Shown here: piece by piece, positions 2 to 61,769 of the stretch
Layout of the letters: each line of letters begins with the position of its first letter
How positions within the stretch are numbered: the first letter of the stretch is position 1
Source of the DNA: Candidatus Flemingiibacterium sp.
Lineage (GTDB): Bacteria > Bacillota > Clostridia > Oscillospirales > CAG-272
Length of the DNA: 64,000 nucleotides
Assembly: GCA_045586505.1 (NCBI GenBank)
Contig: JAZNAL010000026.1
Location: 11,345 to 75,344 of the forward strand
Direction of reading: 5' to 3'
Made by a program: the position numbers and the translations under genes
The notes under the pieces: model-generated
What the model was told of the DNA's origin: nothing
The model's database searches: none
The model's input: the letters and a program-made list of their open reading frames with translations, nothing else

Positions 2-1960
2 ATCTATTATTCTCGGCATTTCACACATGCCGCCAACCGCGAGCTTTATATCGAATACACCGACACCAATGAAGCGGGCGCAGTCACCAAGGTATCGTTT
101 GCCTCGTATTTTAACGGCAAGACGCTTGATTATGCCGTAGTTCCCGGAGTCGGCGAGGAAAAGGATTACGAAGGCATCGATGTCTCGGGCAAGTTAGTGC
201 TTGTCATGCGCGGAACCATCCCCTTCACCGAAAAAGCAAACATTGCCGCATCTCACGGTGCCCTTGGCATGATCGTTTACAACAACACCGAGGACGAGGC
301 GCTCCTTAATATGGAGCTTACCGGGGCAGAGATCCCCGCCATCGCCATCAGCATGAATGACGGTCTTACGCTTGCGGCTGAGTCCGATCGCAGGGTCAAC
401 TTTAACAAAAGCTACATATGGCGCGAGAACACCGAAGGTGCAGGACGTATCTCGGGCTTTTCCTCTTACGGCACCACACCCTCGCTTACCTTGAAGCCCG
501 ATATTTCCGCTATCGGAAGCAGTGTGCTCAGCACGATGGTAGGCGGTGGATACGGCTCGGTATCCGGCACCTCAATGGCGTCACCGCAGATTTCCGGAGC
601 CTGCGCACTGCTTGTTGAAAAGGCGAGAAAAAGTGGAATCACCGATAATGCCGCGATAGCAGTAAGTGTAAAGAACACGCTTATGAATACCGCCTCACCT
701 GTTATTCAGGAAAACGGTATTGAGTATTCTCCCCGCGCCGAGGGATCGGGACTTCTTAACCTTGACGAGGCGGTGAATCAGAAGCTGGAGCTCACTTACA
801 CTCCAACGGGCAGAGCCAAGGCAGAGCTGTTCGACAAGCTCACCGACATCACCGCCATTGATGTCACCTTGAAAAATCTCACCGACTCCACGCTCAATGT
901 GGCCCTTGATGTCACGCTGACAAACGATGGCTATACCCTGATTGAATTCGAGGGCAAGAAGGAATATTACAGCACTCTTACCGCCGAGGCGGACAAAGTA
1001 TCCCGCATCACCGTGGCAGAAAGCGGTAACCTCAACCGTTACGCCGAGGATCACGAGCCGCTGACACTTACCCTTGACGCAAACGAATCCCGTACGCTTA
1101 CGGTAAATATCCATTTTGACAATGCTTACCACCGCAAGCTTAGCAGCATCTTCACAAACGGTCACTTTGCAGAGGGATTTATCTTCTGTGAGGCGGAGGG
1201 TACAGCCGTGTCGCTTCCGTATATGGGCTATATCGGCGACTGGTGCGCCGCACCGGTGCTTGATGGTGACTCTTATAAAGGTGAAACCGAAATGTTCGAC
1301 GGTGCCAAATTCTATGTTATGGTTAACGGCAAATACGTTCCCGCCGGAGCGGACATTTTCACAGACCCATACACCTATGACCGAGACACCATTGCCTTCT
1401 CGCCCAACAATGATGGCTATGCGGACGATATAAATTTCGGCGCTACGGCTATACGCAACGCAAGAAGCTCAAAGATGACAATAACCGATCCCGTCGGCAA
1501 CACCGTGTACAGCTCCAAATTTCCGTATTTCAGCAAAACCGTGGGTATGAAGGAAGTCACTGTATTCCGCTTCAGTTGGGACGGCAGTGACGGCGTTTAC
1601 TCGCGCTACAAGCTACCAGACGGAAAATATACCGCAAGCCTCGAATATACACTCGACTATAGAGAGAATATTACGCAGACATATACCTATCCCGTAATAA
1701 TCGACACCAAGGATCCCACTTTAGAATCCGCCAAACTAAAAGGCAACAAGCTCACACTCACCGCTTCGGATGAAAACGGTGTGCGGGTCATAAGTATTTA
1801 CGAGAGCGACAGCGATGACGCATTTTTCAACCTTGAGCACGGTGACACAGCTGTATATGACATCAGCGGTTATACCTCAGATACGCTGTACTACGAAATA
1901 ATCGATAACGCCTATAATATCTCCGTCGGCAAGCTGACGCTTTCCGACCTTGCAGGCTGA
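2..1960 (+). CDS. S8 (subtilisin-family) cell-envelope serine peptidase, C-terminal part; 5' end lies outside the window
   Basis: The frame is open from base 2, with no stop before the GTG at 197 used by the ORF track. It has a PA-domain-like segment VLVMRGTIPFTEKANIAASHGALGMIVYNN. The canonical catalytic-Ser motif SGTSMASPQISGA is present (Ser codon 572-574). The FTNGHFAEGF...LPYMGYIGDW segment is typical of C5a-peptidase/lactocepin-type S8 enzymes. Confidence 0.85.
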   Translation: MYYSRHFTHAANRELYIEYTDTNEAGAVTKVSFASYFNGKTLDYAVVPGVGEEKDYEGIDVSGKLVLVMRGTIPFTEKANIAASHGALGMIVYNNTEDEALLNMELTGAEIPAIAISMNDGLTLAAESDRRVNFNKSYIWRENTEGAGRISGFSSYGTTPSLTLKPDISAIGSSVLSTMVGGGYGSVSGTSMASPQISGACALLVEKARKSGITDNAAIAVSVKNTLMNTASPVIQENGIEYSPRAEGSGLLNLDEAVNQKLELTYTPTGRAKAELFDKLTDITAIDVTLKNLTDSTLNVALDVTLTNDGYTLIEFEGKKEYYSTLTAEADKVSRITVAESGNLNRYAEDHEPLTLTLDANESRTLTVNIHFDNAYHRKLSSIFTNGHFAEGFIFCEAEGTAVSLPYMGYIGDWCAAPVLDGDSYKGETEMFDGAKFYVMVNGKYVPAGADIFTDPYTYDRDTIAFSPNNDGYADDINFGATAIRNARSSKMTITDPVGNTVYSSKFPYFSKTVGMKEVTVFRFSWDGSDGVYSRYKLPDGKYTASLEYTLDYRENITQTYTYPVIIDTKDPTLESAKLKGNKLTLTASDENGVRVISIYESDSDDAFFNLEHGDTAVYDISGYTSDTLYYEIIDNAYNISVGKLTLSDLAG

Positions 1961-1971
1961 GGAGAATAAAA

Positions 1972-4851
1972 ATGAAATTTAGAAAACTTGTAGCCTCCGC
2001 GCTGTTTTGCAGTCTTACACTGCAGCTCGCGCCCCTATCGGCGGCAGAGATGGTACCGGGCGCTGTTCCCGTGGACTCAGTAAAAAGCGGCGAGGATATG
2101 CTGATCGCTGTTCTCGACAATGGGTTTATACTTGAGCACGAGAGCTTTGTTATAACCGACACCACACCTGCACTGACAAAGGAAAAAAGCGATGCACTGC
2201 TTGCCTCCACCACTGTCGGCGCATCGGATAATGCGCCTGATAGTCTTTATGTAAGCGCAAAGATCCCCTTCGCCTACGACTACGGCGACGGGGACTCCGA
2301 TCTGACCGAGACACACTACTCATATCACGGCACCGCAATGATATCTATTGCGGCAGGAAACGGTGCTCTGCTGGAATCCAAAAACCCCGCCGCAACGGGA
2401 ATTGCTCCGGAGGCGCAGATACTTGCAATGAAGGTCTACTCGGATAAAAAGGAGACCGTAACCGAAGCCGCCATGGTTTCCGCTATTGAGGATGCCATAG
2501 TCCTCGGCGCCCATGTGATACTTATCCCCCTTACCGAGCACTGCGGTGTTTCATTTGATCCTGCCTCCGAGAGATTGATCGCCGCTGTAAAAAAGGCGGA
2601 TGAGGCGGGTATTATCGTGGTCTGCCCCGCAGGCGATGTTTTGGAATACGGCAAAGAAAGTGTATACGCACTCGAATACGAGACCACCGATCCGCCCGCA
2701 ACAAATCCCGATATCGGCACCATCGCCTGGCCCGGCACTCTCGATTCGGTGCTGACCGTAGGCTCCTCCGAGGGTAATACCGTAGAAACCGAGTTTTTTA
2801 CTCTTTCGGACGGCAAGAAGATCCCTTTTGGTGACTCCAACTACCTTTACACCACCATTACCGGCGGCAAGACCTTCGCCGAGTATTTTGACGGTCAGAG
2901 CTTAGAGTACGTTATCGTTGACGGTAGCGGCACCCTTGAAGATTTCACCGCGGCGGGAGATCTTACTGGGAAGCTCACCGTTGTGACACGCGGCACGCTC
3001 AGCTTCAACGAAAAAGCAAAAAACGCCGCAGCATGCGGTGCCATCGGCATGCTCGTCCTCGACAATCAGCCTGACAAGCATTCGGCATTACGTGTTAAGA
3101 TGGACATTTCGGAGTCCACTATACCGGTGGTGATTATTCCAACGGGACACATCAGCGCAATAAAGAATGCCGCAGATAGGCGCATAATGATAAAGGCAGG
3201 CGAGACTTATATCGCAACGATCCGAAGCACGCCCTCTCCCTCGTCTTACTCGGCACGCGGTACTACTCCGGAGCTTGGCTTAAAGCCGGATATAACCGTG
3301 GTCGGCTCTACCGTACAGTGCGCTGCGGTTAACGGCGGCTACGGTTACATGAGTTCCACCGAAGCCTCCGCTGCAAAAGTTGCCGGAATGTGTGCCATAC
3401 TCGTAAAGAAGCTGTCATGTGACTACCCAAACCTCACTTCAGGCGACCTATCCGCGAGGGTCAAGGCAAAGCTGGTAGGATCAGCGGAGCTTATGGTTCA
3501 GGAGCCCTCGGGGACTCCCTATTCTCCGCGGGTGCAGGGCGGCGGAAATGCAACGCTTGATGCTGCGCTTTCTGCTGAGCTGCTACTCACTTCAAACGGT
3601 GCGCATAAGATCGAGCTCGGCGACAATCACACCCGAATGCTCAGCTTTAAGGTGACCGCAGAAAACCTTTCAGACACCGCAAAAGAATGTACCCTTGACA
3701 CCACCTGCGGCTCGGACGATTTTGTCGCTTACACCTATGCTGAGCTGGATATCGAAAATCCCGACGATCCGCTCTATAAGCGGCTAGGTACCGAACCCAC
3801 CGACACTCTGGCATTTATCAGAGATTTTACTGCGCTGTCGGGGGCTAATGTTGTGATAAGCGGTACGTCGTATCAGCTTAATCCCACCGCCTGCGACTAC
3901 AAGCCCTACACCTTCATACTCGGCCCAGGTGAGTCACAGACATTTGACCTTGTTGTATGCTTAAATGATGACACATATACGGAGTACCGGAAGCACTTTA
4001 CAAACGGCTTTTTCATCGAGGGCTTTGTACGCCTCATAAGCAATGATCAGGCGGCTTCCATACCGTTCCTTGGCTATTCCGGAAGCTTTGGCGCAGCACC
4101 CTATCTCGATGCCGATATATACAGCGGCGCTCAGGCAATATATGATGAAATGTACTTGTACCGCCGAATCGATTACGCGGATGCTACGGACAACAAAAGA
4201 ATCATTCTCGGGGCAGATACTCATTCCGAGCCCACTGATTATACCGAATACAACAAGGGCGACATTGCATTTTCACCCATCATCGACCGCGCAAACGCCA
4301 AGGTGATGCTTAATTTCGCCCTGCTCCGTACTGTAAGCGATATATCTGTCACCGTCACCGACGCGATCGGAAATATTGTGGAGCAGAAGAATTACGGAAC
4401 TGTCCCGCGCACCTATGTGAGCAACTCAACCGGTATGCCTACTACCGCCTCACTGCCGCTTTGGAACGGCAGAGCCGACGATAATGTTTCCTACATTTAT
4501 CCCGACGGTTTATATACGGTCACGGTAAGCTACTCGAAGCCTATATCACTTGTCAGGGAAAGTTTTTCCTATGATATTTTCCTCGACACAACCGCACCGA
4601 CACTCGTTTCGGCGGAGTTTGTGACCGAGGATGAAAAACCTGTGCTTGTTGTCACCGCGGAGGATAATCACAGGATCATGCGCTGTACCGTAGTTGACAG
4701 CGATCGGGAGAACGCGTATACCCCCGATGATTGTAGATTTGATATTTCAAACCTCTTTGGCGAGTATATCTATGTGGACATATTTGACTACTCCGCAAAT
4801 TCGACAGTGGTACGGCTTGAAAACCCGCACTATGTCCCAGGCAACGACTGA
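1972..4851 (+). CDS. S8 peptidase paralogue with signal peptide and a degenerate active site (probable pseudo-protease)
   Basis: RBS GAGGAG lies about 8 nt upstream and there is an N-terminal signal peptide. It is colinear with the upstream gene (PA domain; FTNGFFIEGF...IPFLGYSGSF). Asp (AVLDNG, 2116-2118) and His (YHGTAM, 2326-2328) are kept. GTSMASP is replaced by SSTEASA, with Glu codon 3361-3363 at the Ser position. AGN is replaced by AGD (2635-2637). Confidence 0.8.
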   Translation: MKFRKLVASALFCSLTLQLAPLSAAEMVPGAVPVDSVKSGEDMLIAVLDNGFILEHESFVITDTTPALTKEKSDALLASTTVGASDNAPDSLYVSAKIPFAYDYGDGDSDLTETHYSYHGTAMISIAAGNGALLESKNPAATGIAPEAQILAMKVYSDKKETVTEAAMVSAIEDAIVLGAHVILIPLTEHCGVSFDPASERLIAAVKKADEAGIIVVCPAGDVLEYGKESVYALEYETTDPPATNPDIGTIAWPGTLDSVLTVGSSEGNTVETEFFTLSDGKKIPFGDSNYLYTTITGGKTFAEYFDGQSLEYVIVDGSGTLEDFTAAGDLTGKLTVVTRGTLSFNEKAKNAAACGAIGMLVLDNQPDKHSALRVKMDISESTIPVVIIPTGHISAIKNAADRRIMIKAGETYIATIRSTPSPSSYSARGTTPELGLKPDITVVGSTVQCAAVNGGYGYMSSTEASAAKVAGMCAILVKKLSCDYPNLTSGDLSARVKAKLVGSAELMVQEPSGTPYSPRVQGGGNATLDAALSAELLLTSNGAHKIELGDNHTRMLSFKVTAENLSDTAKECTLDTTCGSDDFVAYTYAELDIENPDDPLYKRLGTEPTDTLAFIRDFTALSGANVVISGTSYQLNPTACDYKPYTFILGPGESQTFDLVVCLNDDTYTEYRKHFTNGFFIEGFVRLISNDQAASIPFLGYSGSFGAAPYLDADIYSGAQAIYDEMYLYRRIDYADATDNKRIILGADTHSEPTDYTEYNKGDIAFSPIIDRANAKVMLNFALLRTVSDISVTVTDAIGNIVEQKNYGTVPRTYVSNSTGMPTTASLPLWNGRADDNVSYIYPDGLYTVTVSYSKPISLVRESFSYDIFLDTTAPTLVSAEFVTEDEKPVLVVTAEDNHRIMRCTVVDSDRENAYTPDDCRFDISNLFGEYIYVDIFDYSANSTVVRLENPHYVPGND

Positions 4852-9501: not shown

Positions 9502-11245
9502 TTTCGTCACCTCCGTTTGTCTGCTGAGTGTACACCTCACGGTAGATCTCATTTGTGCGGAGCAGCTCGTCGTGAGTGCCCACCGCACAGATCTTGCCGT
9601 TATCCATAACGATTATCATGTCCGCGTCCTGTACAGATGCCACGCGCTGAGCAATGATGATCTTGGTGGTTTCCGGGATGTAACGCTTAAAGCCCTCGCG
9701 GATAAGCATATCGGTCTTGGTATCCACTGCGCTGGTGGAGTCGTCGAGGATGAGTATCTTCGGCTTCTTTAACAGTGCGCGCGCGATGCAGAGACGCTGC
9801 TTCTGACCGCCCGATACATTGGTACCACCCTGCTCGATCATAGTGTCGTAGCCGTCCGGGAAAGAACGTACAAACTCGTCCGCCTGTGCAAGACGGCACG
9901 CCTCGGCGATCTCCTCATCCGTAGCATCCTTGTTGCCCCACTTGAGATTTTCCCTGATAGTACCGGAGAACAGCAGATTCTTCTGAAGCACCATGGCAAC
10001 CGATCCGCGGAGCGTATCGAGATCATACTCCCGCACATCAACTCCGCCGACGCGGATGCTTCCCTCGGTAGCATCGTAAAGGCGGGGAATAAGCTGTACC
10101 AGCGTAGATTTACTGGATCCGGTACCGCCGAGGATACCTACGGTCATACCCGACTTTATGTGCAGATCAATATCCGCAAGGGCGTATTTTTCAGCCTTGG
10201 CGGAATATTTGAAGCTGACATCGTAAAAATCTATGGAGCCGTCACGCACTTCGGTAACTGCGTTCTTCGGATTTTTAAGCACAGGCTCCTCCGCAAGCAC
10301 CTCGCAGATACGCTTTACGGATTCCGCGGACATTGTCAGCATGACATAGATCATGGACAACATCATAAGCGACATGAGTATCTGCATACCGTAAGTGAGC
10401 ATCGCCGAAATCTGACCTACAAATATCTCGGTACCGCCGCTTGTAATGATCATCTTTGAGCCCACAAGCAGTACGAATATCATGTTGAAATACAGGCAGA
10501 CCTGCATAATGGGACCGTTCAGCGCCACAATACGCTCGGCTTTTGTAAAGTCGCGGCGGATATCGTCAGCCGCAGCGCCGAACTTCTGCTTCTCGTATTC
10601 CTCGCGGGAGAAGCCCTTGACAACTCGCATTGCGCGGACATTTTCCTCTATGGATTCGTTGAGCTTATCGTATTTGCGGAATACACTTCTGAATGCGGGC
10701 ATAGCCTTATGGCTGACAAACAGAAGTCCGCAGATTAGAAACGGCACCACTATAACAAAGGTAGTGGCAAGCGCTCCGCCCATAACATACGCCATGATTA
10801 TGGAGAAGATAAACATCAGCGGACTACGGATCGCCGTACGGATAATCATCATGTACGCCATCTGCACGTTTGTAACGTCCGTGGTCATTCGTGTAACGAG
10901 AGAAGTGGAAGAAAACTTGTCGACATTTTCAAAGGAATAGGTCTGAATGCGGCGGAAAATATCATGACGCAGATTCTTTGCAAATCCCGCTGATGCCTTA
11001 GCGCATGTAAAGCCCGCGACGCCGCCGCAGGTAAGCGACAGGCACGCCATCACAACAAGCAGTAAGCCTGTCTTGATGATCGAATCCATCTCTGCGCCGT
11101 CCTTGATACTGTTTACAAGGGCAACGGTAATAAACGGAATAAATGTCTCGATGACCGCCTCGCCAATTATGAAAATCAGCGTTAGTAAGGTCGGCAGCTT
11201 ATACTCTCTTATACAGCCCGCAAGCCGTTTTATCAAGTGTAACAC
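9494..11245 (-). CDS. ABC exporter, fused permease/ATPase; the half-transporter carrying the degenerate catalytic site
   Basis: Walker A is GGTGSSKST. Walker B is ILILDDSTS, with Asp where the catalytic Glu normally sits. The signature VSGGQ is intact. The pair matches the LmrCD/EfrCD/TM287-288 heterodimer pattern. The start is GTG 11245, or TTG 11236 if spacing to AGAGGTG is preferred. Confidence 0.9.
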   Translation of the reverse strand: MLHLIKRLAGCIREYKLPTLLTLIFIIGEAVIETFIPFITVALVNSIKDGAEMDSIIKTGLLLVVMACLSLTCGGVAGFTCAKASAGFAKNLRHDIFRRIQTYSFENVDKFSSTSLVTRMTTDVTNVQMAYMMIIRTAIRSPLMFIFSIIMAYVMGGALATTFVIVVPFLICGLLFVSHKAMPAFRSVFRKYDKLNESIEENVRAMRVVKGFSREEYEKQKFGAAADDIRRDFTKAERIVALNGPIMQVCLYFNMIFVLLVGSKMIITSGGTEIFVGQISAMLTYGMQILMSLMMLSMIYVMLTMSAESVKRICEVLAEEPVLKNPKNAVTEVRDGSIDFYDVSFKYSAKAEKYALADIDLHIKSGMTVGILGGTGSSKSTLVQLIPRLYDATEGSIRVGGVDVREYDLDTLRGSVAMVLQKNLLFSGTIRENLKWGNKDATDEEIAEACRLAQADEFVRSFPDGYDTMIEQGGTNVSGGQKQRLCIARALLKKPKILILDDSTSAVDTKTDMLIREGFKRYIPETTKIIIAQRVASVQDADMIIVMDNGKICAVGTHDELLRTNEIYREVYTQQTNGGDENE

Positions 11246-11274
11246 CTCTTTTTAGTAATAGTTATCCCATATTT

Positions 11275-11288
11275 GTTAGGAACCTAAC
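11275..11288. promoter_or_regulatory. Operator-like inverted repeat GTTAGG-AA-CCTAAC over the predicted transcription start of the ABC exporter
   Basis: The 6-bp arms are perfectly complementary with a 2-bp centre. The repeat begins 2 nt downstream of the -10 hexamer. Confidence 0.4.
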
Positions 11289-11289
11289 T

Positions 11290-11318
11290 ATTATACCCTA
11301 TAATCAGCTCCATTTCAA
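11290..11318 (-). promoter_or_regulatory. Sigma-A type promoter of the ABC exporter operon
   Basis: On the minus strand: TTGAAA (11318-11313), a 17-nt spacer, then TATAAT (11295-11290). Confidence 0.6.
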
Positions 11319-11567
11319 GATTTATAAGGCATATTTAACAATAATGTAACAATGTAATTAGTTAGTTTAAACAACTATTCTTTCTTTATGCCATACTGCG
11401 CCGATTTGAGCATTGCGCGAAAGGCTTTATGCACTATCTCCCTGGGAAAATCCTCCGCATCCTGTAGATTTTATTTTACACTTTATTCATACCAATACGA
11501 TAATAATTTGCTATACTTGTATTAACGATATAAAATATTTCTGTTATTTTATGAAAGGGGACGCCGA

Positions 11568-12338
11568 ATGCCAAGAATAATAAAGCCCGCCTTGATATTC
11601 TGCCTGCTTTTGAGCCTTTTTGCTGTAGGCTGCAGTGATAAGGATAAAACACAGGTACCGAATAATAACATCATATACGCTCCCGTGGATCCGAGTCTTG
11701 AAACGACGCCGGAGGACACGGAGACCGAGCCGCAGGATTCCGAATCTGCCGACGAAACGGCACACACAACTCAAACTCCGTCAATGGTCGATCCCGAGCC
11801 GACCCCGATACCCGTTCCCGATCCTGTACCCAATCCCACGCCGGAAACACCCACCCCCGACACAGCTGAGACCATAATAACCGACATTACCGGAACCGAT
11901 TCAAGTCCGGTTGATCTTACGGACGCCCTGCTGTCGAATGAAGCAATCTCAGGAAGACTTATCTCAGATCAGAGTGAGAAGCTTCGACTGGTGATTAACT
12001 ACGACTGCTCCATGAATTCCATGGGCTTTATCACGTTTATTTTTGACGTGGGGCTGGAATGCTACGACATAGACTGCGGTGCAAGAACCGATATGGGCGA
12101 GCTTACCATCAACGGCTCATCGCATAAATTCTCCACCGATCCGATTTCAAACTCTTCGGGGACAAAGATTTATGTGCCCTTCACCTCGTATACATATACC
12201 TGTGATGCGGAAGCAACCTCCTGTACTGTCGATGCATCCTGGGCTTTCAACGGAGTATACGGCGGTATCAAGATCGACAAGCTGACCGCAGGTGCGGTCT
12301 TCACCTGGGGCGAGCCGACAACCGTTCCCGTACCGTAA
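11568..12338 (+). CDS. Lipoprotein of unknown function with a Pro/Thr/Glu-rich linker
   Basis: RBS AAAGGGGA is present. The signal peptide has a lipobox, LFAVGC. A low-complexity linker (PEPTPIPVPDPVPNPTPETPTPD) is followed by a roughly 140-aa globular C-terminal part. I did not recognise a family. Confidence 0.6.
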   Translation: MPRIIKPALIFCLLLSLFAVGCSDKDKTQVPNNNIIYAPVDPSLETTPEDTETEPQDSESADETAHTTQTPSMVDPEPTPIPVPDPVPNPTPETPTPDTAETIITDITGTDSSPVDLTDALLSNEAISGRLISDQSEKLRLVINYDCSMNSMGFITFIFDVGLECYDIDCGARTDMGELTINGSSHKFSTDPISNSSGTKIYVPFTSYTYTCDAEATSCTVDASWAFNGVYGGIKIDKLTAGAVFTWGEPTTVPVP

Positions 12339-16352: not shown

Positions 16353-16392
16353 GTATGTGTGAAATTATAAATCATTCATGGAGGTTATTATC

Positions 16393-17553
16393 ATGAAATT
16401 CACAAAAATTCTTGCACTCGTTCTTTGTGCCGTGCTCTGCTTCGGAATGGCAGCATGCGGCAGTGTAAACTATGCAGAAAACAATACCGAGTATGTGATC
16501 GGTGTTTCCGGTCCTCTTACCGGCGGTGCTGCTATGTACGGTATCGCAGTTGCAAATGCCGCTCAGCTCGCGGTTGATGAGATCAATGCAGCTGGTGGTC
16601 TCAACGGCGTTATGTTCAAGCTTGTCGCTCTTGACGATATGAACGATGCCACCAAGATATCCACCAACTACTCCTCTCTCTATGAGGGCGGTATGCAGGT
16701 ATCTCTCGGTACCGTTACCACTCAGCCCGGTCTTGAGTTCAAGAACCTTTCCGCTGACGATAACGTTTTCTTCCTCACTCCTTCCGCATCCGGCGATGCC
16801 ATTCCCGTAAACAAGAACGGCTATCAGATGTGCTTTGCGGACGGCAACCAGGGTAAGGTTGCGGCTGAATACGTAAACGCTAACTTTGCAGGTCAGACCA
16901 TCGGCGTATTCTATAAGTCCGATGAGGCTTATTCTAAGGGTATTTACGATCAGTTCAAGGCAAACCTTGACACCTCGGTTACTGTAGTTGAAACCACCTT
17001 CACCGATGCAAACGCAACCGACTTTTCGACTCAGATCGATACTCTGAAGGCTTGCAACTTCATCTTCATGCCCATCTACTATACTCCCGCTTCGCTCTTC
17101 TTGCAGCAGGCAAAGGACATCATGGCTGCTGATGCGGTCTACTACGGCTGCGACGGCTTCGACGGCATCGATAACATCGATGGCTTCGATATCACCTTGA
17201 TTCCTCAGGAAATCACCATGCTCTCCCACTTCAACTCCAAGGCTACGGACGGTCTTGCAAAGGAGTTTATCGACAAGTATGTTGACAAATTCGGTTCCGA
17301 GACCCTTAACCAGTTCGGTGCTTCTGCTTACGACTGCGTATATGCAATCTACGGCGCTATGAAGAAGGCTATCGACGAGGGCAAGGAAATCCCCGTTACC
17401 ATCAGCGCATCCGACCTCTGCGACATCCTTATGGCACAGTTCGAGGGCGGCTACTCTCTTGAAAAGGCTGTTACCGGCGAAAACATCACCTGGGAATCCA
17501 CCGGTTATGTAAACAAGGGCGCCATCAAGTACATTATCAAAGAAGCTAACTGA
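16393..17553 (+). CDS. Branched-chain amino-acid ABC transporter substrate-binding lipoprotein (LivJ/LivK family)
   Basis: GGAGG lies 9 nt upstream of ATG 16393, and the track start at 16378 overlaps that RBS. The signal peptide has a lipobox, GMAACG. The protein has a type-I periplasmic-binding fold and is followed by livHMGF-type genes. Confidence 0.85.
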   Translation: MKFTKILALVLCAVLCFGMAACGSVNYAENNTEYVIGVSGPLTGGAAMYGIAVANAAQLAVDEINAAGGLNGVMFKLVALDDMNDATKISTNYSSLYEGGMQVSLGTVTTQPGLEFKNLSADDNVFFLTPSASGDAIPVNKNGYQMCFADGNQGKVAAEYVNANFAGQTIGVFYKSDEAYSKGIYDQFKANLDTSVTVVETTFTDANATDFSTQIDTLKACNFIFMPIYYTPASLFLQQAKDIMAADAVYYGCDGFDGIDNIDGFDITLIPQEITMLSHFNSKATDGLAKEFIDKYVDKFGSETLNQFGASAYDCVYAIYGAMKKAIDEGKEIPVTISASDLCDILMAQFEGGYSLEKAVTGENITWESTGYVNKGAIKYIIKEAN

Positions 17554-17585
17554 TAGCTTTACGTTTTAAGAACGTTTTAAGAGAA

Positions 17586-17625
17586 TAACTGCATATACCG
17601 ACCGAAGGGTCGGTATATGCAGTTA
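17586..17625 (+). promoter_or_regulatory. Strong intercistronic stem-loop after the binding-protein gene, with no U-tract
   Basis: A perfect 17-18 bp stem (T)AACTGCATATACCGACC-GAAG-GGTCGGTATATGCAGTT(A). It is followed by TGGCTATAAAAGGA rather than a T-run. Confidence 0.75.
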
Positions 17626-17645
17626 TGGCTATAAAAGGAATTTAT

Positions 17646-18518
17646 ATGGAACTTATTTTATCAACCCTGATAAACGGTCTGAGCCTTGGCGGCATATATG
17701 CCATGATAGCACTTGGCTATACAATGGTTTACGGTATCGCCAAAATGCTCAACTTTGCCCACGGCGATATCATCATGGTCGGCGGATATGTTATATATGT
17801 GTTCATGGCACTTAAAAATCCCCTGCTCGCTATCGCTATGGCAGTTCTTTTCTGCGTCATGCTCGGTATTCTTATCGAAAAGGTGGCGTACAAACCCCTT
17901 CGTGGCGCATCCCCTCTGGCGGTGCTGATCACCGCCATCGGCGTAAGCTATCTTCTGCAGAGCCTTGCACAGATCGTGTTCGGCTCCGCTAACAAAATGG
18001 TCACCGTATACGATTTCGGCTCGGTCAGCTTCCTCGGAGTTACCGTACAGATCTCCGCTCTTGTTACTCTTGCCGTAACTGTTGTCGTAATGATCACGCT
18101 TACCCTTTTCATCAAATACACCCGCCTCGGACGCGCTATGATCGCGGTTTCCGAGGATAAGGGCGCGGCACAGCTCATGGGTATCAACGTTAACGGTATT
18201 ATTACTGTAACCTTCGCCATCGGCTCTGCACTTGCAGCGCTTGCGGGACTGTTCTATCTTCTGAAGGCTCCCAGCATTTCCAGCACTCTCGGCGCAATGC
18301 CCGGTATCAAAGCGTTTACCGCGGCAGTTATCGGCGGTATCGGCTCTATTCCCGGCGCCATGCTCGGCGGCATACTTCTCGGTATGGTTGAGTGCATCTC
18401 CTATAAGATCACCGCTATCGCTCCTTACACAGACGCTATCGAGTTCTCTATACTTATAATCATTCTTCTTGTACGTCCTACCGGATTCCTCGGTAAGAAA
18501 CGGAGGGAAAAGGTATGA
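17646..18518 (+). CDS. livH: Branched-chain amino-acid ABC permease (LivH type)
   Basis: AAGGA lies 7 nt upstream of ATG 17646. The N-terminus MELILSTLINGLSLGGIYAMIALG matches the typical LivH start. The track ATG at 17625 lies inside the hairpin. Confidence 0.9.
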   Translation: MELILSTLINGLSLGGIYAMIALGYTMVYGIAKMLNFAHGDIIMVGGYVIYVFMALKNPLLAIAMAVLFCVMLGILIEKVAYKPLRGASPLAVLITAIGVSYLLQSLAQIVFGSANKMVTVYDFGSVSFLGVTVQISALVTLAVTVVVMITLTLFIKYTRLGRAMIAVSEDKGAAQLMGINVNGIITVTFAIGSALAALAGLFYLLKAPSISSTLGAMPGIKAFTAAVIGGIGSIPGAMLGGILLGMVECISYKITAIAPYTDAIEFSILIIILLVRPTGFLGKKRREKV

Positions 18519-19660
18519 TGAAGGCACTTCGTAATTTCAAGTGGAACCACTACATAAACTATATCGTTATAGGTATACTGACCACAGTTCTCGGAGGAAT
18601 GGCTCTGGGCGGCTACAGATTTGACAGCTCCCTTCTGTTCCTTCTTGAAAAGATCGCTATAAGCATCATCCTTGCGGTATCGCTTTCACTTGTTGTAGGC
18701 TTCCTTGGCGAGCTATCTCTCGGACACGCCGGATTTATGTGCGTCGGTGCTTATCTCGGCGGTAAGATCGCGGCCGTTCTCGAGCCGACTCTCGGCAACG
18801 GACCTCTCGGATTTTTTATAGCTCTTGTGGTGGGCGGTGCAGCAGCGGCACTCTGCGGCGTTATCATCGGTATTCCCGCACTCCGACTTCGCGGAGACTA
18901 CCTTGCTATTGTGACCCTTGCGTTCGGCGAGATCGTAAAGTCCATTTTCCAGAACACCTCTACCGAATCCTTCGGCGGTGCTATCGGACTTCCCACTCCC
19001 CGTTACGATAAGAAATATCTTTTCATTTTTGCATTTATTCTCGTGCTTGTAACCCTTGCCGTGGTACAGAACTTTATCCGCTCAAAGCATGGCAGAGCCG
19101 TTACGGCGATCCGTGATAACGAGATCGCGGCACGTGCTACCGGTATAAACGTAACCAAGTACAAGCTGCTTGCCTTCACCCTGTCCGCAACATTTGCGGG
19201 CATTGCAGGCGTACTCTACAGCTTCAGCAATTACACCGTTCAAAGCGCGAAATTCGGGTACAACTATTCTATCGAGATCCTTGTAATGGTAGTTCTCGGC
19301 GGTATGGGAAGCGTTAACGGCTCCATTATCGCGGCGGCGCTCATAACTTTCCTTAACACCAAGCTGGCAACCGTGCTTACGGGTGATCTCGCCGTGCTTC
19401 AGAATCTTCTCTACGCGCTCATCCTTATCGTTATCGTTGTTTACAATAATGCTCCCGCATTAAAGAGCTTCCGCGACAGGTACAACTTTGGCGCACTTGC
19501 CAGAAAGCTTGCAAGACGCAAAAACGATCCCTCCCATATCAAGGATGACCAGGCGAAGTGGGACGTCGTTCCTACCAAGATAGAGATGAACGAGGTTCTC
19601 TCCATAGATCTGACACCCCAGGACAAGCAGGGATATGAGAAAAAAGGAGGAGATGAGTAA
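18515..19660 (+). CDS. livM: Branched-chain amino-acid ABC permease (LivM type)
   Basis: The start overlaps the livH stop in an ATGA. It is a polytopic permease with the LivM-type block GELSLGHAGFMCVGAY. Confidence 0.9.
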   Translation: MMKALRNFKWNHYINYIVIGILTTVLGGMALGGYRFDSSLLFLLEKIAISIILAVSLSLVVGFLGELSLGHAGFMCVGAYLGGKIAAVLEPTLGNGPLGFFIALVVGGAAAALCGVIIGIPALRLRGDYLAIVTLAFGEIVKSIFQNTSTESFGGAIGLPTPRYDKKYLFIFAFILVLVTLAVVQNFIRSKHGRAVTAIRDNEIAARATGINVTKYKLLAFTLSATFAGIAGVLYSFSNYTVQSAKFGYNYSIEILVMVVLGGMGSVNGSIIAAALITFLNTKLATVLTGDLAVLQNLLYALILIVIVVYNNAPALKSFRDRYNFGALARKLARRKNDPSHIKDDQAKWDVVPTKIEMNEVLSIDLTPQDKQGYEKKGGDE

Positions 19661-20430
19661 TGGCTGATTACATTCTTGAAACAAAGAATCTCGGTATCTC
19701 CTTCGGCGGTCTTAAAGCGGCACAGGATGTGAACATCCGCATAAAGAAGAATCAGATCTACGGTCTTATCGGTCCCAACGGTGCCGGAAAGACCACGATA
19801 TTCAATCTTCTCACAGGCGTTTACAAGCCCACAGCCGGTACATTCTACCTCGACGGCGAGGAGCTTAAGGGACTCGCTCAGGACAAGATAAACGGTAAGG
19901 GAATAGCACGCACGTTCCAGAACATCCGTCTTTTCAACAACATGACTGTAATCAGAAATGTTATGGTTGGTCTGCACAACCGCCCCGAATACAAGTGCAG
20001 TGTTGCAGAGACATTATTCCGTCTTCCCCGCCATTTCAAGGTTGAGAAGGCGATGCGTGAGAAGGCAAAGGAGCTGCTTCGCATCTTTGATCTTGAAGAG
20101 GAGCGCAACAATCTCGCCTGCAATCTGCCTTACGGTAAGCAGAGAAAATTGGAGATCGCACGAGCGCTTGCCACAAATCCGAAGCTGCTGCTCCTCGATG
20201 AGCCTGCAGCGGGCATGAATCCTCATGAAACCGAGGATCTTGTAAAGACCATACGCTTTATACGCGACAGCTTCAATATGACAATACTACTGATCGAGCA
20301 CGATATGAAGTTTGTGTCGGGACTCTGTGACGAGGTCACTGTGTTGAATTTCGGCACGGTGCTTGCGGAGGGCGACACCAAGACTGCCTTAAACGATCCC
20401 GAGGTCATTAAGGCATACATCGGAGGTTAA
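19660..20430 (+). CDS. livG: Branched-chain amino-acid ABC ATP-binding protein (LivG type)
   Basis: The start overlaps the livM stop in TAATG. Walker A is GPNGAGKTT, Walker B is LLLLDEPAAGM, and the protein carries a LivG-type C-terminal extension. Confidence 0.9.
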   Translation: MADYILETKNLGISFGGLKAAQDVNIRIKKNQIYGLIGPNGAGKTTIFNLLTGVYKPTAGTFYLDGEELKGLAQDKINGKGIARTFQNIRLFNNMTVIRNVMVGLHNRPEYKCSVAETLFRLPRHFKVEKAMREKAKELLRIFDLEEERNNLACNLPYGKQRKLEIARALATNPKLLLLDEPAAGMNPHETEDLVKTIRFIRDSFNMTILLIEHDMKFVSGLCDEVTVLNFGTVLAEGDTKTALNDPEVIKAYIGG

Positions 20431-20543
20431 AGTCTGAAAAACGGGGCGTTTTTCAGACAAGGAAGTCTTGTGCCTTTCGCATCTCTTATGCGATTTCCAT
20501 ATGGATACCGGCACAAAACCTCGCAATCGTTGGAAAGGAATGG
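20430..20543 (+). repeat. Intercistronic repeat element, copy A (between livG and livF)
   Basis: By eye it is about four-fifths identical, with one indel, to 39436-39550 in the same orientation. Both copies start aagYctgaaaaa and end gaaaggaatgg. Shared predicted hairpins are described in the findings. Confidence 0.8.
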
Positions 20544-20551
20544 CTATATCT

Positions 20552-21262
20552 ATGGCAATGCTTGAAGTAAAAGACCTTGAAGTCTACTACGGCGTGATCT
20601 GCGCGCTTAAGGGTATCAGCTTCGAGGTAAACGAGGGAGAGATCGTCACTCTCATCGGCGCAAACGGTGCGGGTAAAACCACCACCATGCAGAGTGTCGT
20701 CGGACTTATCCCCACAAGAGCGGGAAGCGTCACCTTTGACGGTCACGACATCACAAAGACTCCCTGCCACAAAATAGTGCATCTCGGTATGACACAGGTG
20801 CCCGAGGGAAGACGCATCTTCCAGGAGCTGACCGTTTACGAGAACCTCCTTATGGGTGCATACTCCATGAAGGATCAGTCGGGCTTTAAGGCGGACATCG
20901 ACGCGGTATATACCCGATTCCCACGCCTTGCGGAGAGACGCAACCAGATCGCGGGTACGCTTTCGGGCGGTGAGCAGCAGATGCTTGCTATGGGCAGAGC
21001 GATCATGAGTCATCCCAAGCTTTTAATGCTGGATGAGCCGTCAATGGGTCTGTCCCCTCTGCTTGTGGATCAGGTATTTGAGATCATCAAGGACATCAAC
21101 AAGGATGGCACCACCATTCTTCTGGTCGAGCAGAATGCGGGCAAGTCGCTTGCGATCTCCGACCGAGCATACGTGCTGGAAAACGGCAGGATCGTCCTCA
21201 CCGGTACAGGTACGGAGCTTGCCGCAAGCGAGATGGTCAAGAAGGCTTATCTCGGCGGCTGA
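20552..21262 (+). CDS. livF: Branched-chain amino-acid ABC ATP-binding protein (LivF type)
   Basis: MLEVKDLEVYYG... with Walker A GANGAGKTT and Walker B LLMLDEPSMGL. The start is ambiguous among ATG 20540, 20552 and 20558. The track start at 20468 reads through the non-coding repeat element. Confidence 0.85.
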   Translation: MAMLEVKDLEVYYGVICALKGISFEVNEGEIVTLIGANGAGKTTTMQSVVGLIPTRAGSVTFDGHDITKTPCHKIVHLGMTQVPEGRRIFQELTVYENLLMGAYSMKDQSGFKADIDAVYTRFPRLAERRNQIAGTLSGGEQQMLAMGRAIMSHPKLLMLDEPSMGLSPLLVDQVFEIIKDINKDGTTILLVEQNAGKSLAISDRAYVLENGRIVLTGTGTELAASEMVKKAYLGG

Positions 21263-36720: not shown

Positions 36721-36852
36721 TCAGTTATCCGCGATCAGCTTTGCCGTTTGAGCGCAATCACGATCAGCGGTATCAGTCCACTCACGCAGTACGGCGATAA
36801 GCTTTGCTCCTATCCTGCCGCCCTGACCGTCGATTATAACTGTCTTCTTCAT
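36721..36852 (-). CDS. 43-codon ORF resembling only the N-terminus of DUF3842-type proteins (possible gene remnant)
   Basis: The ATG overlaps the amidohydrolase stop in TAATG. MKKTVIIDGQGGRIGAKLIAVLRE resembles, from memory, the M-x-I-x-VIDGQGGGIG start of DUF3842 proteins, which are about 120-140 aa. Here the ORF stops after 43 codons. Confidence 0.35.
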   Translation of the reverse strand: MKKTVIIDGQGGRIGAKLIAVLREWTDTADRDCAQTAKLIADN

Positions 36853-37652
36853 TATTTATTCCCCAACAGCTTTATGGCATTTTCGCTACAGATTTTCTTC
36901 ATCAGCTCATCGGATAGTCCGAGGGATTCAACATACTCGTGGCCAAGATTCATTCCATACCACGGGAAGTCGCTGCCGAACAGTATTTTCTCGGGATCGT
37001 GATTGTTAAGCATCCGCGCATATTTGACAGGCTCAAGCCCGAACATCGGTGCAAGAGAGGTCTCGATCCACAGATTCTTTCCGATAAGCAGTCGCTCCGC
37101 CTCATCCCACTGCTTGCAGGCGCCCATATGCGCCGCGATAAATCTCAGCTCGGGGAATTTTTTCAGCACGTTAAGTATCCGCTCAGGCGTGCAGTGAATG
37201 AGATCGGGGGAGATAAAATCCCAGCCGGAATGAGTGATCAGAAACAGATCGTTTTCGATGCAAGCCTTGTATATGGGATCAAATTTCGCATCGTCCACAA
37301 GTACGCCCATGTAGTCGGGATGTATCTTGATGCCGCGGATACCGGCATCCGCAAGACGTCGCGCCTCCTCTGCGATATTATCGCTGTCGGGGTTAAGCGA
37401 GCCCAGCGCGTACAGTCGGTCATAGTTGGAATTGACCTCGATGGCGAAATTGTTGACATTTGTCTGCTGCTTTGGATTTGTGGCAATATTAAGTATGACC
37501 GCGCGGTCGATTCCCCACTCATCCATGCGGGAAATGAGGCTTGATACAGTACCGTCACCGTATGCTTCGATTCCGCCGATGCCCGCGAGCTTGGGGATCG
37601 CCTTTTCGGCGACCTTATCGGGAAATGCGTGGGTATGAAAATCTATTATCAT
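36852..37652 (-). CDS. Amidohydrolase-2 family TIM-barrel metal-dependent hydrolase
   Basis: The N-terminus MIIDFHTHAFP supplies the metal-binding HxH. Later conserved His/Asp residues lie in GIKIHPDY, ITHSG and FGSDFPW. Confidence 0.8.
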   Translation of the reverse strand: MIIDFHTHAFPDKVAEKAIPKLAGIGGIEAYGDGTVSSLISRMDEWGIDRAVILNIATNPKQQTNVNNFAIEVNSNYDRLYALGSLNPDSDNIAEEARRLADAGIRGIKIHPDYMGVLVDDAKFDPIYKACIENDLFLITHSGWDFISPDLIHCTPERILNVLKKFPELRFIAAHMGACKQWDEAERLLIGKNLWIETSLAPMFGLEPVKYARMLNNHDPEKILFGSDFPWYGMNLGHEYVESLGLSDELMKKICSENAIKLLGNK

Positions 37653-37937: not shown

Positions 37938-39422
37938 ATGGAGAACAAAACGCAAAACAGTATGCCGAATGTTATCTCGGCTGCAGAGCTGCGTGCGATC
38001 GCCGAGAGTGAAGCATCCACCGCAAAAAGCCGCATCACAGCACTTTTTGACGCAGGAACCTTCGCTGAGACAAGTGCTTTCGCGCACAAGCTTGCCGCAG
38101 AATTCGGCGGTAGCGACAACGGCGAGCTTGAAGGCGTAGTTACCGGCTACGGTGCTATCGACGGCAGACTCGTATTCGCTTTCGTTCAGGATTTTTCCAG
38201 AATGAAGGGCGCAGTAGGCGCTATGCACGCAAAGAAGATCTGCGCGCTTTACGACCTCGCTGTGAAGAACGGCGCACCCGTGATCGGTATTTTCGACAGC
38301 GCAGGTGCTTATGTTATGGAGGGCGTTGAGGCTCTCGCAGGCTACGGTAAGATCATGAAAAAGGTATCCGATGCTTCCGGCGTGATTCCTCAGATTGCAG
38401 TTATTGCAGGCAACTGCGGCGGTGCTATGGCTACTGTGGCATCCATGTTCGATATCACCGTCGGCGCCAAGACCGGTGCTTTCTATGTAAATCCCCCCTT
38501 CGTATTAAACGAGCTTGACAAGAAGGCTGAGCTCGGTAAGATCGAGACCGCGGCAAAGAGCGGTCAGATAAGCGTAGTATGCGACACCGACACCGATGCG
38601 CTTGCATACGTAAGAAAGCTCCTTTCCTACATTCCTCAGAACAACGCGGACGGTACCGCTTACTCGGCTACCACCGACGAGATCAACCGTCTCACCCCCG
38701 ATGTTGCATCCATTATTGCATCCGAGGGCTACAAGATGGCAGACGTCATCTCCGCAATCTCCGATGACGCCGCATTCCTCGAGCTTTCGGAAGAGTATGC
38801 AAAGTCCATGCTCACCGGCTTTATTACGTTAAACGGCATGGTAGTCGGAATCGTCGCAAACAATCCCGCACACATCGGCGGCAAGATCTGCGGCGGTGCG
38901 GCTAAGAAGGCGGCAAGATTCGTTTCCTTCTGCGACTGCTATAAGATCCCGCTTCTCACACTCGTTGACACCGAGGGCTACGAGGTATCCGTTGAGGCTG
39001 AAAAGGCTCAGTACGGTGCAGCTCTTGCAAAGCTCGCTTCCGCATACGCATCAAGCGACAACGCGAAGGTTACCGTAGTGCTGGGCAAGGCTTACGGCGC
39101 GGCTTACACCCTCATGGGCTCTAAATCCATCGGCGCGGATATCGCACTTGCTTGCGAGACCGCCAAGATCAGCGCAATGCCCACAGCGAGCGCAGTCGCT
39201 TTCGCTTGGAACGACAAGGTCACCGACAACGCAAAGCGCGGTGAAGTCGAGGCACAGTGGGACAGCGTAATGGCATCTCCCGTCGTTGCCGCAAAAGCAG
39301 GAGAGATCGACGACATCATTTCTCTTGATGAGCTTCGTCAGCGCGCATCCGCCGCATTTGAAATGCTCGGCGCAAAGAACGCACTTTGCCAAAAGAAGCT
39401 CCACAACAACCTTCCTTTATAA
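37938..39422 (+). CDS. Acyl-CoA carboxyltransferase subunit (MmdA/GcdA/PccB family; divergent)
   Basis: GGAGG lies 7 nt upstream. It has two carboxyltransferase half-domains: GAVGAMHAKKICALYDLAVKNGAPVIGIFDSAGAYVMEGV and PLLTLVDTEGYEV...GKAYGAAY. The usual DSGGARIQEG block reads DSAGAYVMEG. Confidence 0.8.
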   Translation: MENKTQNSMPNVISAAELRAIAESEASTAKSRITALFDAGTFAETSAFAHKLAAEFGGSDNGELEGVVTGYGAIDGRLVFAFVQDFSRMKGAVGAMHAKKICALYDLAVKNGAPVIGIFDSAGAYVMEGVEALAGYGKIMKKVSDASGVIPQIAVIAGNCGGAMATVASMFDITVGAKTGAFYVNPPFVLNELDKKAELGKIETAAKSGQISVVCDTDTDALAYVRKLLSYIPQNNADGTAYSATTDEINRLTPDVASIIASEGYKMADVISAISDDAAFLELSEEYAKSMLTGFITLNGMVVGIVANNPAHIGGKICGGAAKKAARFVSFCDCYKIPLLTLVDTEGYEVSVEAEKAQYGAALAKLASAYASSDNAKVTVVLGKAYGAAYTLMGSKSIGADIALACETAKISAMPTASAVAFAWNDKVTDNAKRGEVEAQWDSVMASPVVAAKAGEIDDIISLDELRQRASAAFEMLGAKNALCQKKLHNNLPL

Positions 39423-39435
39423 TCGGGAGGGCATA

Positions 39436-39550
39436 AAGCCTGAAAAATGGATCATTTTTCAGACAATTAAGTTTTGTGCCTTTTGCATCTTCCATGCGAA
39501 TTTCCAAACGGAAACCACCACAAAACTTCATATTCGTTAGAAAGGAATGG
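39436..39550 (+). repeat. Intercistronic repeat element, copy B (between the carboxyltransferase and gamma-subunit genes)
   Basis: It is homologous to 20430-20543 in the same orientation, with the same hairpin layout and the same GAAAGGAATGG end. Confidence 0.8.
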
Positions 39551-39921: not shown

Positions 39922-39943
39922 AATTATAAAGGAGAATTTTACA

Positions 39944-40321: not shown

Positions 40322-40350
40322 TACCTCGCAAAGTTTAAAGAGGTGCTGTC

Positions 40351-41619: not shown

Positions 41620-41659
41620 CTCCCTTTACATAAATCCGATATAATGGAGGAAAACATAA

Positions 41660-61737: not shown

Positions 61738-61769
61738 TATTACCGTACCGAAAGGATGATTGATACAAT

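Follow-up and report, generated by a model that had tools for sequence, protein, structure and literature searches.

The repeats closest in kind to the element described here are REP2 (CREN) of Neisseria and IR-A/IR-B of Borrelia, which are 120-150 bp long, lack terminal inverted repeats (TIRs) and carry stem-loops toward their 5' end (Delihas 2011, PMC3184786), and which supply, at their 3' end, a ribosome binding site (RBS) and an ATG directly upstream of co-oriented open reading frames (ORFs); where these repeats come from and how they spread is unknown (PMC3184786). The present analysis concerns an element of about 119 nt that occurs twice within a 64,000-nt stretch of DNA from Candidatus Flemingiibacterium sp. 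(the window), the host clade of the element being described as uncultured gut Clostridia (Oscillospiraceae-like metagenome-assembled genomes, MAGs). On balance, the evidence favors its description as a non-autonomous mobile cassette that targets the gap between the Shine-Dalgarno sequence (SD) and the start codon and brings a replacement SD with it, and thus as a REP2-like small repeat rather than a riboswitch.

Two copies of one element in unrelated operons

The first-pass annotation of the window had pointed to two homologous spacers, about four-fifths identical with one indel and in the same orientation, between genes that are otherwise unrelated. This is borne out by alignment with MAFFT and repeat search, which give an identity of 78-81% (78% over 116 columns), the same orientation and a single 1-nt indel. 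Copy A lies between livG and livF in the operon livJ-H-M-G-F (16378-21262), and copy B between the carboxyltransferase and OadG genes of a Na+-translocating decarboxylase operon (37938-43057) that encodes, according to Pfam, carboxyltransferase, OAD_gamma, biotinyl carrier, OAD_beta and OADA-type subunits. The chance expectation for a 20-base pattern taken from the hairpin region is 0.00 matches in the window, and the GC content of the element is 36-45%, compared with 51% for the window. The limits first given for the spacers (20430-20543 and 39436-39550) located the element correctly, with the repeat unit itself now revised to about 20432-20550 and 39438-39557.

Copy A: 20432-20550, + strand, about 119 nt with boundaries of +/-2 nt, between the livG stop codon (20428-20430) and the livF ATG; nhmmer E=8e-36, covariance model (CM) score 123.8 bits.
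Copy B: 39438-39557, + strand, about 120 nt with boundaries of +/-2 nt; CM score 143.7 bits.
livF from its native start: 20552-21262, + strand, 236 amino acids (aa), with length and N-terminus (MAMLEVK...) as in relatives; Pfam ABC_tran.
oadG, encoding the gamma subunit of the Na+-translocating decarboxylase, read from its native start: 39559-39921, + strand, 120 aa; Pfam OAD_gamma.
Native livF SD, GGAGG: 20422-20426, + strand, within the last livG codons and now about 125 nt from the start codon.
Native oadG SD, GGGAGGG: 39425-39431, + strand, parted from its ATG by copy B.

Empty sites in related genomes

Many homologues of LivG, with identities of 89-95%, occur in Clostridia/Oscillospiraceae MAGs, and in every relative locus fetched the gap between livG and livF is 3-4 nt and LivF has 236 aa. 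The empty site, aligned to copy A for loci L001, L002, L005 and L007, reads GGAGGCTAAAGTTATG, that is, GGAGG, 8 nt and ATG with no insert, so that an empty allele in which GGAGGCTAAAGT directly adjoins TATGGCAATG stands against a window allele of GGAGGTTAAAGT, 117-119 nt and TATGGCAATG. At oadG, the spacer in relatives (OadG 68-81% identical) is 15-16 nt long and likewise without insert (TAATTGGGGGGACATAAAAATG in L024, TCGGAGGGACTAAATATG in L025 and GAGGGAGGACCAACAATG in L027); in L024 it reads TAATTGGGGGGACATAAAA immediately before the ATG, and copy B is absent there.

Also significant is the observation that all 120 OadG homologues listed begin with MT(I/L)NP and that none of the 120 has the M-V-I-K extension, as well as that the database protein P0121, which is 100% identical to OadG, has 120 aa and is accordingly called from the second ATG at 39559. 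For livF, the empty sites of the relatives and their 236-aa LivF place the native start at the second ATG (20552). The earlier description of an SD and an ATG with a second ATG 12 nt further on was therefore accurate as to sequence, with the roles now assigned: the first ATG (20540; 39547) belongs to the repeat, and the second (20552; 39559) is the native start. The role of this second ATG, and the splitting of an existing SD-ATG pair by the element, had not been recognized in the first-pass annotation. That both window copies are insertions into pre-existing genes is the decisive comparative result, and because insertion was recent in both operons, the element is not an ancestral regulatory part of either.

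Further copies and presence/absence polymorphism

A pattern scan over one genome per species (185,579 species) gave nine matches, two of which are genuine full-length copies (L012 and L019), and a metagenome scan contributed another (L021); since 20 exact bases were required, these counts are lower bounds. A partial copy in L024 was found with an improved nhmmer profile and the CM, which brings the total to five full copies and one partial copy, spread over at least three genomes and preceding six genes that are unrelated to one another, with pairwise identities of 76-89%. Whether the two spacers belong to a larger set had been left by the first-pass annotation to such searches, and other loci and species do carry copies.

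L012: Clostridia MAG28, preceded by a TTGACT-17-TATACT promoter and placed in the 5' untranslated region (UTR) of a gene for an AEC-family transporter.
L019: Ca. Flemingiibacterium, flanked on both sides by a TauE gene of half size.
L021: metagenome scan (JGI), in the 5' UTR of lexA, downstream of a promoter with a Cheo-box-like site.
L024: 37-1, - strand, partial copy at a contig edge, directly after an Amidohydro_2 gene (GGGGGATAAA followed at once by GTCTGAAAAATGGGTCATTTTTTAGAC...); CM E=1e-4, 3' end missing.
Window: 36840-36865, - strand, site occupied in L024 and empty here, the Amidohydro_2 stop in the window overlapping the start of the next gene (GGGGAATAAATAATG).

All four testable sites (livF, oadG, lexA and the Amidohydro_2 site) are polymorphic for presence and absence of the element, with empty alleles in relatives whose flanking proteins are 81-99% identical. 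The lexA site is empty in relatives with LexA identities of 92% (L029-31) and 99% (L048), and the Amidohydro_2 case is reciprocal, with L024 occupied where the window is empty and empty where the window holds copy B. The element has thus moved recently, and its absence from a relative at four of four sites, together with six copies before six unrelated genes, is what characterizes mobile repeats in general. Beyond the six copies, the nhmmer profile and the CM detected none in the window and about 430 kb of DNA from relatives, blastn gave no match in plasmid or phage collections, and four different patterns run against IMG/VR returned chance matches only, in which similarity did not extend past the pattern. 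The copies diverge by 11-24%, whereas at least the lexA insertion, the one dated here, is younger than the divergence of the strains, so that the differences probably predate insertion and arose in source lineages; such divergence would imply a larger, unsampled family in which the fold is under selection.

Several individual sites show features of their own. In L024 (30-40, - strand), insertion removed the TAA of the Amidohydro_2 gene, which was part of a TAATG stop/start overlap, and the ORF now stops at a TGA in the first bases of the element (GTCTGA), so that the protein ends in ...GDKV instead of ...GNK. In L019 (5525-5550, - strand), the first TauE half-gene is separated from the element by a terminator-like hairpin, AAAAACCGATAACATCGGTTTT, and the element there may consequently follow a transcript end rather than being operon-internal. 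The lexA promoter (L021, 12300-12340, - strand; also L029 and L048) has a conserved Cheo-box-like CGAACAACCGTTTG just upstream of an extended -10 (TGGTATAAT), and because this site is kept in occupied and empty alleles, the lexA copy is inserted downstream of an intact SOS operator.

Insertion anatomy and probable targeting

Insertion is into the gap of 5-9 nt between SD and start codon. The orientation of each of the six copies is that of the gene downstream, and four of them are at operon-internal positions. Every copy starts 4-7 nt after an SD-like GGAGG, GGGAG or AGGTG, directly after an A-rich (T)AA(A), and begins GY-CTGAAAAA, and the five complete copies finish ...GAAAGG-N-ATGG-YY-ATA-(1-3 nt), 0-2 nt before the native ATG. 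The left flanks (TAAA, TAAA, AAAA, ATAA, ACAA and TAAA) are A-rich and not fixed, a feature that is confounded by the A-richness of SD-ATG spacers. Such spacers account, by a rough estimate, for far less than a tenth of the DNA between genes, and tolerance alone therefore cannot explain six sense-oriented SD-ATG insertions out of six. The parasitic repeats BOX, RUP and SPRITE are biased the other way and accumulate between convergent genes (PMC3049150).

No TIRs are present: the ends, GTCTGAAAAA... and ...ATGGTCATAA, are not complementary, and the inverted repeats of the element (helices P1-P4, below) are internal. Comparison of occupied and empty alleles reveals no duplicated bases at livF, the apparent CATAAA repeat at oadG is also the conserved 3' end of the element itself, and the insertion site at lexA is ambiguous to +/-2 nt. 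Models with a target-site duplication (TSD) or TIR of TA, CT or CATAAA were rejected, none of them holding across sites, as was a classical MITE (a miniature transposable element with inverted repeats), for want of TIRs and of a consistent TSD. The boundaries are defined only to +/-2 nt because of microhomology between the element ends and the A-rich native spacers, the junctions concerned being TAAAGT at livF, CATAAAAATG at oadG, and TATAGTTATG versus CATAATTATG at lexA.

The same microhomology bears on a first alternative, in which there is no dedicated machinery and short-homology (illegitimate or homology-facilitated) recombination between initiation regions that share GGAGG, an A-rich spacer and ATG puts a block of SD, cassette and ATG from one gene in place of the matching few bases of another. 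The native TAAAGT at copy A matches the AAGT seen in other copies just before the element or at its start, the native CATAAAAATG at copy B is identical to the 3' end of the element plus flank, the lexA pair noted above is similarly placed, and the 5' flanks of copy B and L012 share ATCGGGAG, where copy A has ATCGGAGG. Such exchange would account for the SD-ATG location and the orientation without a targeting enzyme, and fits the low copy number. However, a homology of 5-10 nt is very little for independent events to recur in several lineages, the sequence immediately 5' of the element is native rather than donor-derived in copy A, copy B and lexA, and the conservation of the stems (below) is left unexplained. 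This alternative is accordingly considered rather doubtful.

A second alternative is a PATE-like derivative of an IS200/IS605-type (HUH/Y1) element, whose hairpins would be single-stranded DNA signals for a transposase acting in trans, which would insert 3' of an A-rich motif without duplication, and whose SD would be incidental or harm-reducing. The lack of TIR and TSD agrees with this, as do the left flank, which is always (T/A)(A/T/C)AA and resembles the ATAA or ATAT at the 3' end of the element, the perfect hairpin at the left end and the strictly one-stranded orientation. The wobble departures in the stems slightly favor the - strand and are compatible with a fold at the DNA level, and a divergence between copies that far exceeds the age of the lexA insertion fits active source lineages selected for mobility. 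The two ends are nevertheless unlike, P1 (12 bp, perfect) being without a counterpart at the 3' end. The ends of IS608-type elements use a 5' guide tetranucleotide, for which there is no room here, as P1 begins at the first base of the element. In addition, A-rich targets of 4 nt are found everywhere, yet all six copies lie 4-7 nt past an SD and the five complete ones end at an ATG, and no tnpA (Y1_Tnp) was seen within the 64-kb window. A PATE-like origin is thus regarded as unlikely.

Fold of the element and constraint on it

The first-pass annotation had drawn a 5' A/U-rich hairpin, a closing helix and two inner hairpins, and all of these are recovered in the current analysis as helices P1, P2, P3 and P4, respectively, by folding of the single sequences (P1 with a stem of 12 bp rather than 11) and by RNAalifold on five copies. 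The + strand folding z-scores of the two window copies, from single-sequence folding, are -2.9 and -3.4.

P1, copy A: 20432-20443 paired with 20447-20458, + strand, 12-bp A/U-rich hairpin with a 3-nt loop (GTCTGAAAAACG / CGTTTTTCAGAC).
Three-way junction, copy A: 20463-20521, + strand, consisting of P2 (20463-74/20510-21), P3 (20477-82/20488-93) and P4 (20494-98/20503-07).
Helices of copy B: + strand, P1 39438-49/39453-64, P2 39469-78/39519-28, P3 39483-88/39494-99 and P4 39501-05/39510-14.
Junction strand J2/3, CCUUUC: 20473-78, + strand, complementary to the element's own SD, as seen in the sequence.
Linker between P1 and P2: ACAAUNAAG.

In the alignment of five copies, 95% of cells in the four helices are paired, compared with 30-48% when the partner columns are slid by 1-3, and substitutions fall mostly outside the stems, as had been noted by eye (12 of 68 paired versus 27 of 50 unpaired columns variable; Fisher p=5.7e-5). 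Four of the 12 variable stem columns belong to compensatory pairs. There are two pairs with clean compensatory double changes, namely P1 27-33, which is C-G in two copies and U-A in three and corresponds to the loop-closing change already recognized as compensatory, and P3 66-74, in which A-U becomes G-C in L019; the change from C-G to U.G reported in P3 is also real. The stems therefore appear to be under purifying selection, in which case the fold matters to the element or its host. The - strand of copy A folds better than its + strand (z = -5.5), so that folding energy alone does not fix the strand.

Near the 3' end, two further 5-bp hairpins, P5 and P6, are unrelated in sequence to P1. In the RNAalifold consensus, P5 presents GAAAGG in its loop and has the ATG of the element as its 3' arm, and in four of the five copies the sole variable base, N of GAAAGGNAUG, finds a partner there (U-A, C-G or G.U). 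Single-sequence folds recurrently pair the native AUG plus two bases with the terminal GYYAU of the element. A conserved small ORF inside the element was rejected on inspection, the ATG in the P1 loop region being absent from copies A and L012, and the frame from the element-borne ATG is open for only four codons. In copy A only, two T-to-C changes (20465 and 20520) turn P2 pairs into C.A on the + strand and G.U on the - strand. The same changes give rise to AACCUC, a complement of the displaced native SD (GGAGGUU) that is paired with it in the minimum free energy fold of copy A, a predicted pairing that represents a single case.

Comparison with known families gave no assignment. Rfam 15 at gathering thresholds has no match in the whole window, in agreement with the first impression that no recognized riboswitch or leader is involved, and in E-value mode the best scores are far below threshold and to different families (19.5 bits to atoC, - strand, for copy A; 20.8 bits to TD-2, - strand, for copy B). 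ARAGORN finds no tRNA or tmRNA in the window, and a consensus scan, the sole method used here, finds no sigma-70-like promoter in or around either copy on either strand. The element is also not a terminator, a point already made in the first-pass annotation, since scans of both strands show no GC-rich hairpin with a U-tract; P1 is A/U-rich and is followed by AAU or AAG.

The conserved junction brings in a third alternative, a cis-regulatory leader (riboswitch, or protein- or small RNA-binding) with the three-way junction as its core, in which CCUUUC would sequester GAAAGG as a pseudoknot in one state. Its compensatory changes speak for such a leader, as do the complementarity of J2/3 CCUUU(C/U) to the SD in every copy, a position where the platforms of translational riboswitches sit, and the membrane-transport or bioenergetic character of five of the six downstream or flanking genes (LivF, OadG, AEC, TauE). 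Yet the same genes occur without the element in sister genomes, at up to 99% protein identity, and hence do not need it. Moreover, the downstream genes (lexA, livF, oadG and others) are functionally unrelated, the identity of 76-89% extends over linkers and loops, as expected for a young repeat and not for an old aptamer class, Rfam offers no match, and the pairing of SD and anti-SD is invariant. A regulatory leader is therefore held to be improbable.

Element-borne SD and translation of the downstream gene

After insertion, the native SD is about 125 nt from the native AUG, and the GAAAGG of the element is the only SD-like sequence within range.

SD-like GAAAGG, copy A: 20533-20538, + strand, 13 nt upstream of the native livF ATG, in the P5 loop.
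Element ATG (uATG), copy A: 20540-20542, + strand, in frame with livF and 1 nt after the SD, forming the 3' arm of P5.
SD-like GAAAGG, copy B: 39540-45, + strand.
uATG, copy B: 39547-49, + strand.

Four of the full copies have this GAAAGG unchanged and L012 has GAAAAGG; in all five, the motif precedes the native AUG by 13-14 nt, a spacing equivalent to GGAGG plus about 10 nt, compared with 7-9 nt at most neighboring genes. The 3' end of Firmicute 16S rRNA reads ...CCUCCUUUCU-3', and GAAAGG pairs with its extreme 3' end. The uATG is 12 nt from the gene ATG and in frame in four of five copies. Because it follows the SD by only 1 nt, initiation at the uATG is unlikely, and its conservation would instead reflect its part in P5. 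In L012 (846-865) the distance is 13 nt, and the out-of-frame uATG frame closes with a TAG one base before the gene ATG (ATGGTTATATAGTATG), which could be chance or a hint that the uATG is sometimes read. The accessibility of the SD was dropped as evidence of a translational enhancer, being inconsistent between copies. The suggestion of a translation, processing or stability module for the downstream cistron thus survives in part: the element does hold the only SD-like sequence in reach, but as a recent insertion in both operons it is no ancestral component of them.

The resemblance of the 3' end to the start of a gene (SD-like sequence plus ATG GTC ATA...) raises a fourth alternative, neutral debris that neither functions nor moves at present and is what remains of the left end of an insertion sequence after its decay (5' UTR, SD and start of the transposase gene that was lost). 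An origin from the 5' UTR of a gene has been suggested for REP2-type repeats (PMC3184786) and counts in its favor. Such debris would, however, not be expected as a discrete unit of about 119 nt with the same ends at five loci and the same 5' end in the sixth, partial copy; strain-level presence and absence indicates recent movement, and the non-random substitutions indicate constraint. This origin is considered very improbable.

Proposed mechanism

For the favored mobile cassette, the following course of events is envisaged. The cassette would insert in one orientation between SD and start codon, pushing the native SD about 125 nt away and putting its own GAAAGG in place 13-14 nt upstream of the AUG, so that the downstream gene would remain translatable from its native AUG through a new, self-contained initiation region. 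The rate of translation would be altered, and likely lowered, and would no longer be coupled to the upstream cistron. Once transcribed, the cassette is predicted to fold into the 12-bp hairpin, the three-way junction and the two small 3' hairpins, one of which would display the SD in its loop and the other weakly pair the AUG. The fold could serve propagation of the element or continued expression of the host gene, and in the latter case would shield the new initiation site against translation and structure upstream of it. By analogy with REP and ERIC elements, P1, just after the upstream stop codon, and the compact junction may act as determinants of processing or stability, and the CCUUUC junction strand, to judge from its invariant complementarity, could sequester the SD.

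Several observations weigh against this description of the element. The departures from pairing on a single side of the stems are mostly C.A on the + strand, and four of them are G.U on the - strand, compared with two G.U on the + strand; as this split is not significant, wobble pairs do not settle the strand of the selected fold. The covariation score observed was reached in nine of 500 shuffles, and covariation drawn from five sequences, too few for a statistical decision, is suggestive. The predicted unpaired probability of the new SD varies between 0.27 and 0.79 among copies and the native AUG is mostly paired (0.05-0.25), and preserved translation is for this reason inferred rather than a result. 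There are only six copies, the exact-pattern scans of species genomes and JGI metagenomes having yielded three new loci, and the element is low-copy and narrowly distributed, which is atypical for a MITE burst. Finally, Pfam shows no transposase, integrase or reverse transcriptase among about 50 ORFs of the window, all of which are housekeeping or metabolic, no autonomous parent element was found in the searches described, and the absence of TIRs and TSDs means that no known transposition chemistry is implied. Three routes remain, namely a trans-acting enzyme specific for initiation regions, an IS200/IS605-like single-strand mechanism, and short-homology recombination.

A bolder version of the mobile cassette, put forward tentatively and thought to be rather unlikely, is a new class of selfish elements that home to initiation regions by recognizing SD...AUG (possibly through CCUUUC and through pairing of the 3' GYCAU with AUGRC), that insert outside the known transposase families, possibly by way of a structured RNA or single-stranded intermediate, and whose cost is offset by the replacement RBS. 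If this were true, the element would be a portable, self-propagating module of translational control.

Small bacterial repeats are usually tolerated where they are least harmful, downstream of genes. The element has entered a very sensitive position, the SD-start gap, more than once and with the same orientation each time, and the genes concerned are of an essential type (lexA, an ABC ATPase and a Na+ pump subunit). If insertion is targeted, the element would exemplify a type of target specificity new to mobile DNA and would be a naturally occurring, self-contained 'plug-in' translation-initiation region, with relevance for the evolution of expression ratios within operons and as a synthetic-biology part for Clostridia. 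Near-identical genomes that differ in whether a site is occupied or empty make the influence of the element on expression directly testable.

Other features of the window

The gene for IF-2, infB (61764-64000, + strand), follows rimP (59347-59829) and nusA (59861-60970) and runs off the end of the window. Its N-terminal region contains tandem repeats, with a 45-nt unit present about 6-8 times (62142-62501) and a 30-nt unit three times (61998-62093), and a 418-aa ORF on the minus strand (61881-63137) is a shadow of infB. At 197-4851 (+ strand) are two adjacent paralogous subtilase genes (Peptidase_S8 plus PA domain) that share an 85-nt stretch of 73% identity (201-285 and 2981-3065). Two segments of about 600 nt each (9589-10159 and 10941-11567) have no ORF of >=90 aa in a greedy gene set and no Rfam match, and the ORFs that adjoin them (10446-10940 and 11568-12338) have no Pfam match.

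Comparison with known repeat families

REP/BIME, ERIC, Correia (NEMIS), BOX, RUP and SPRITE are likewise small (<200 bp), structured, non-coding and co-transcribed, and can alter mRNA processing, stability or expression. They differ from the element in having TIRs and/or TSDs or short GC-rich palindromes, and in being present in either orientation and at copy numbers from tens to hundreds. Intergenic repeats of this type are enriched downstream of genes or between convergent genes (PMC3049150), whereas the element is low-copy, in one orientation and between SD and ATG. A REP/BIME-like dispersed repeat, which the first-pass annotation had offered as its other possibility, is apt insofar as the element is dispersed (other loci and species, empty sites in relatives), but not in its remaining traits, as it is not a short GC-rich palindrome, not high-copy and not downstream of genes. 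REP/BIME as such, a family of short (about 20-40 nt), GC-rich imperfect palindromes that are numerous, lie mostly downstream of genes or between convergent ones and often form clusters of alternating orientation, was rejected: the element has 119 nt at 36-45% GC, with two copies per 64 kb in the same orientation upstream of start codons and no clusters.

Mycobacterial interspersed repetitive units (MIRU), which Supply et al. reportedly described in 1997 as intercistronic and co-oriented with genes, are said to maintain translation of the downstream cistron. They are tandem direct repeats of 40-100 bp with small ORFs whose stop and start codons overlap the neighboring genes, whereas the element consists of one structured unit and has no conserved ORF. 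PATEs (palindrome-associated elements, IS200/IS605-derived) resemble it in their lack of TIR and TSD, end hairpin and confinement to one strand, and perhaps in insertion 3' of a short motif; the element departs from them in its unlike ends, in the lack of room for a guide 5' of the hairpin, and in a target context far more specific than a tetranucleotide.

The closest described kind remains REP2/IR, with a likeness that is architectural and set by description; sequence homology across phyla is unlikely, REP2/IR being found in a different phylum from the Clostridia hosts of the element. The shared architecture comprises a length of about 119 nt, the absence of TIRs, a 5' P1 hairpin followed by the P2-P4 junction, and a 3' end of GAAAGG(N)ATGG in the five full copies (GAAAAGG in L012), upstream of and co-oriented with an ORF. 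For REP2-type repeats, the origin and spread of which have stood as an open question since 2000, the empty sites provide the first clear evidence of mobility. There are also differences. REP2/IR carry a promoter, whereas the element has no detectable one, the promoters in L012 and L021 lying upstream of it and four of its six copies being operon-internal, and its three-way junction contrasts with two simple hairpins. REP2 is described as having its ATG joined to the ORF, for which it serves as the start, whereas the element, as its empty sites demonstrate, splits an existing SD-ATG pair and retains the native ATG 12-13 nt downstream of its own.

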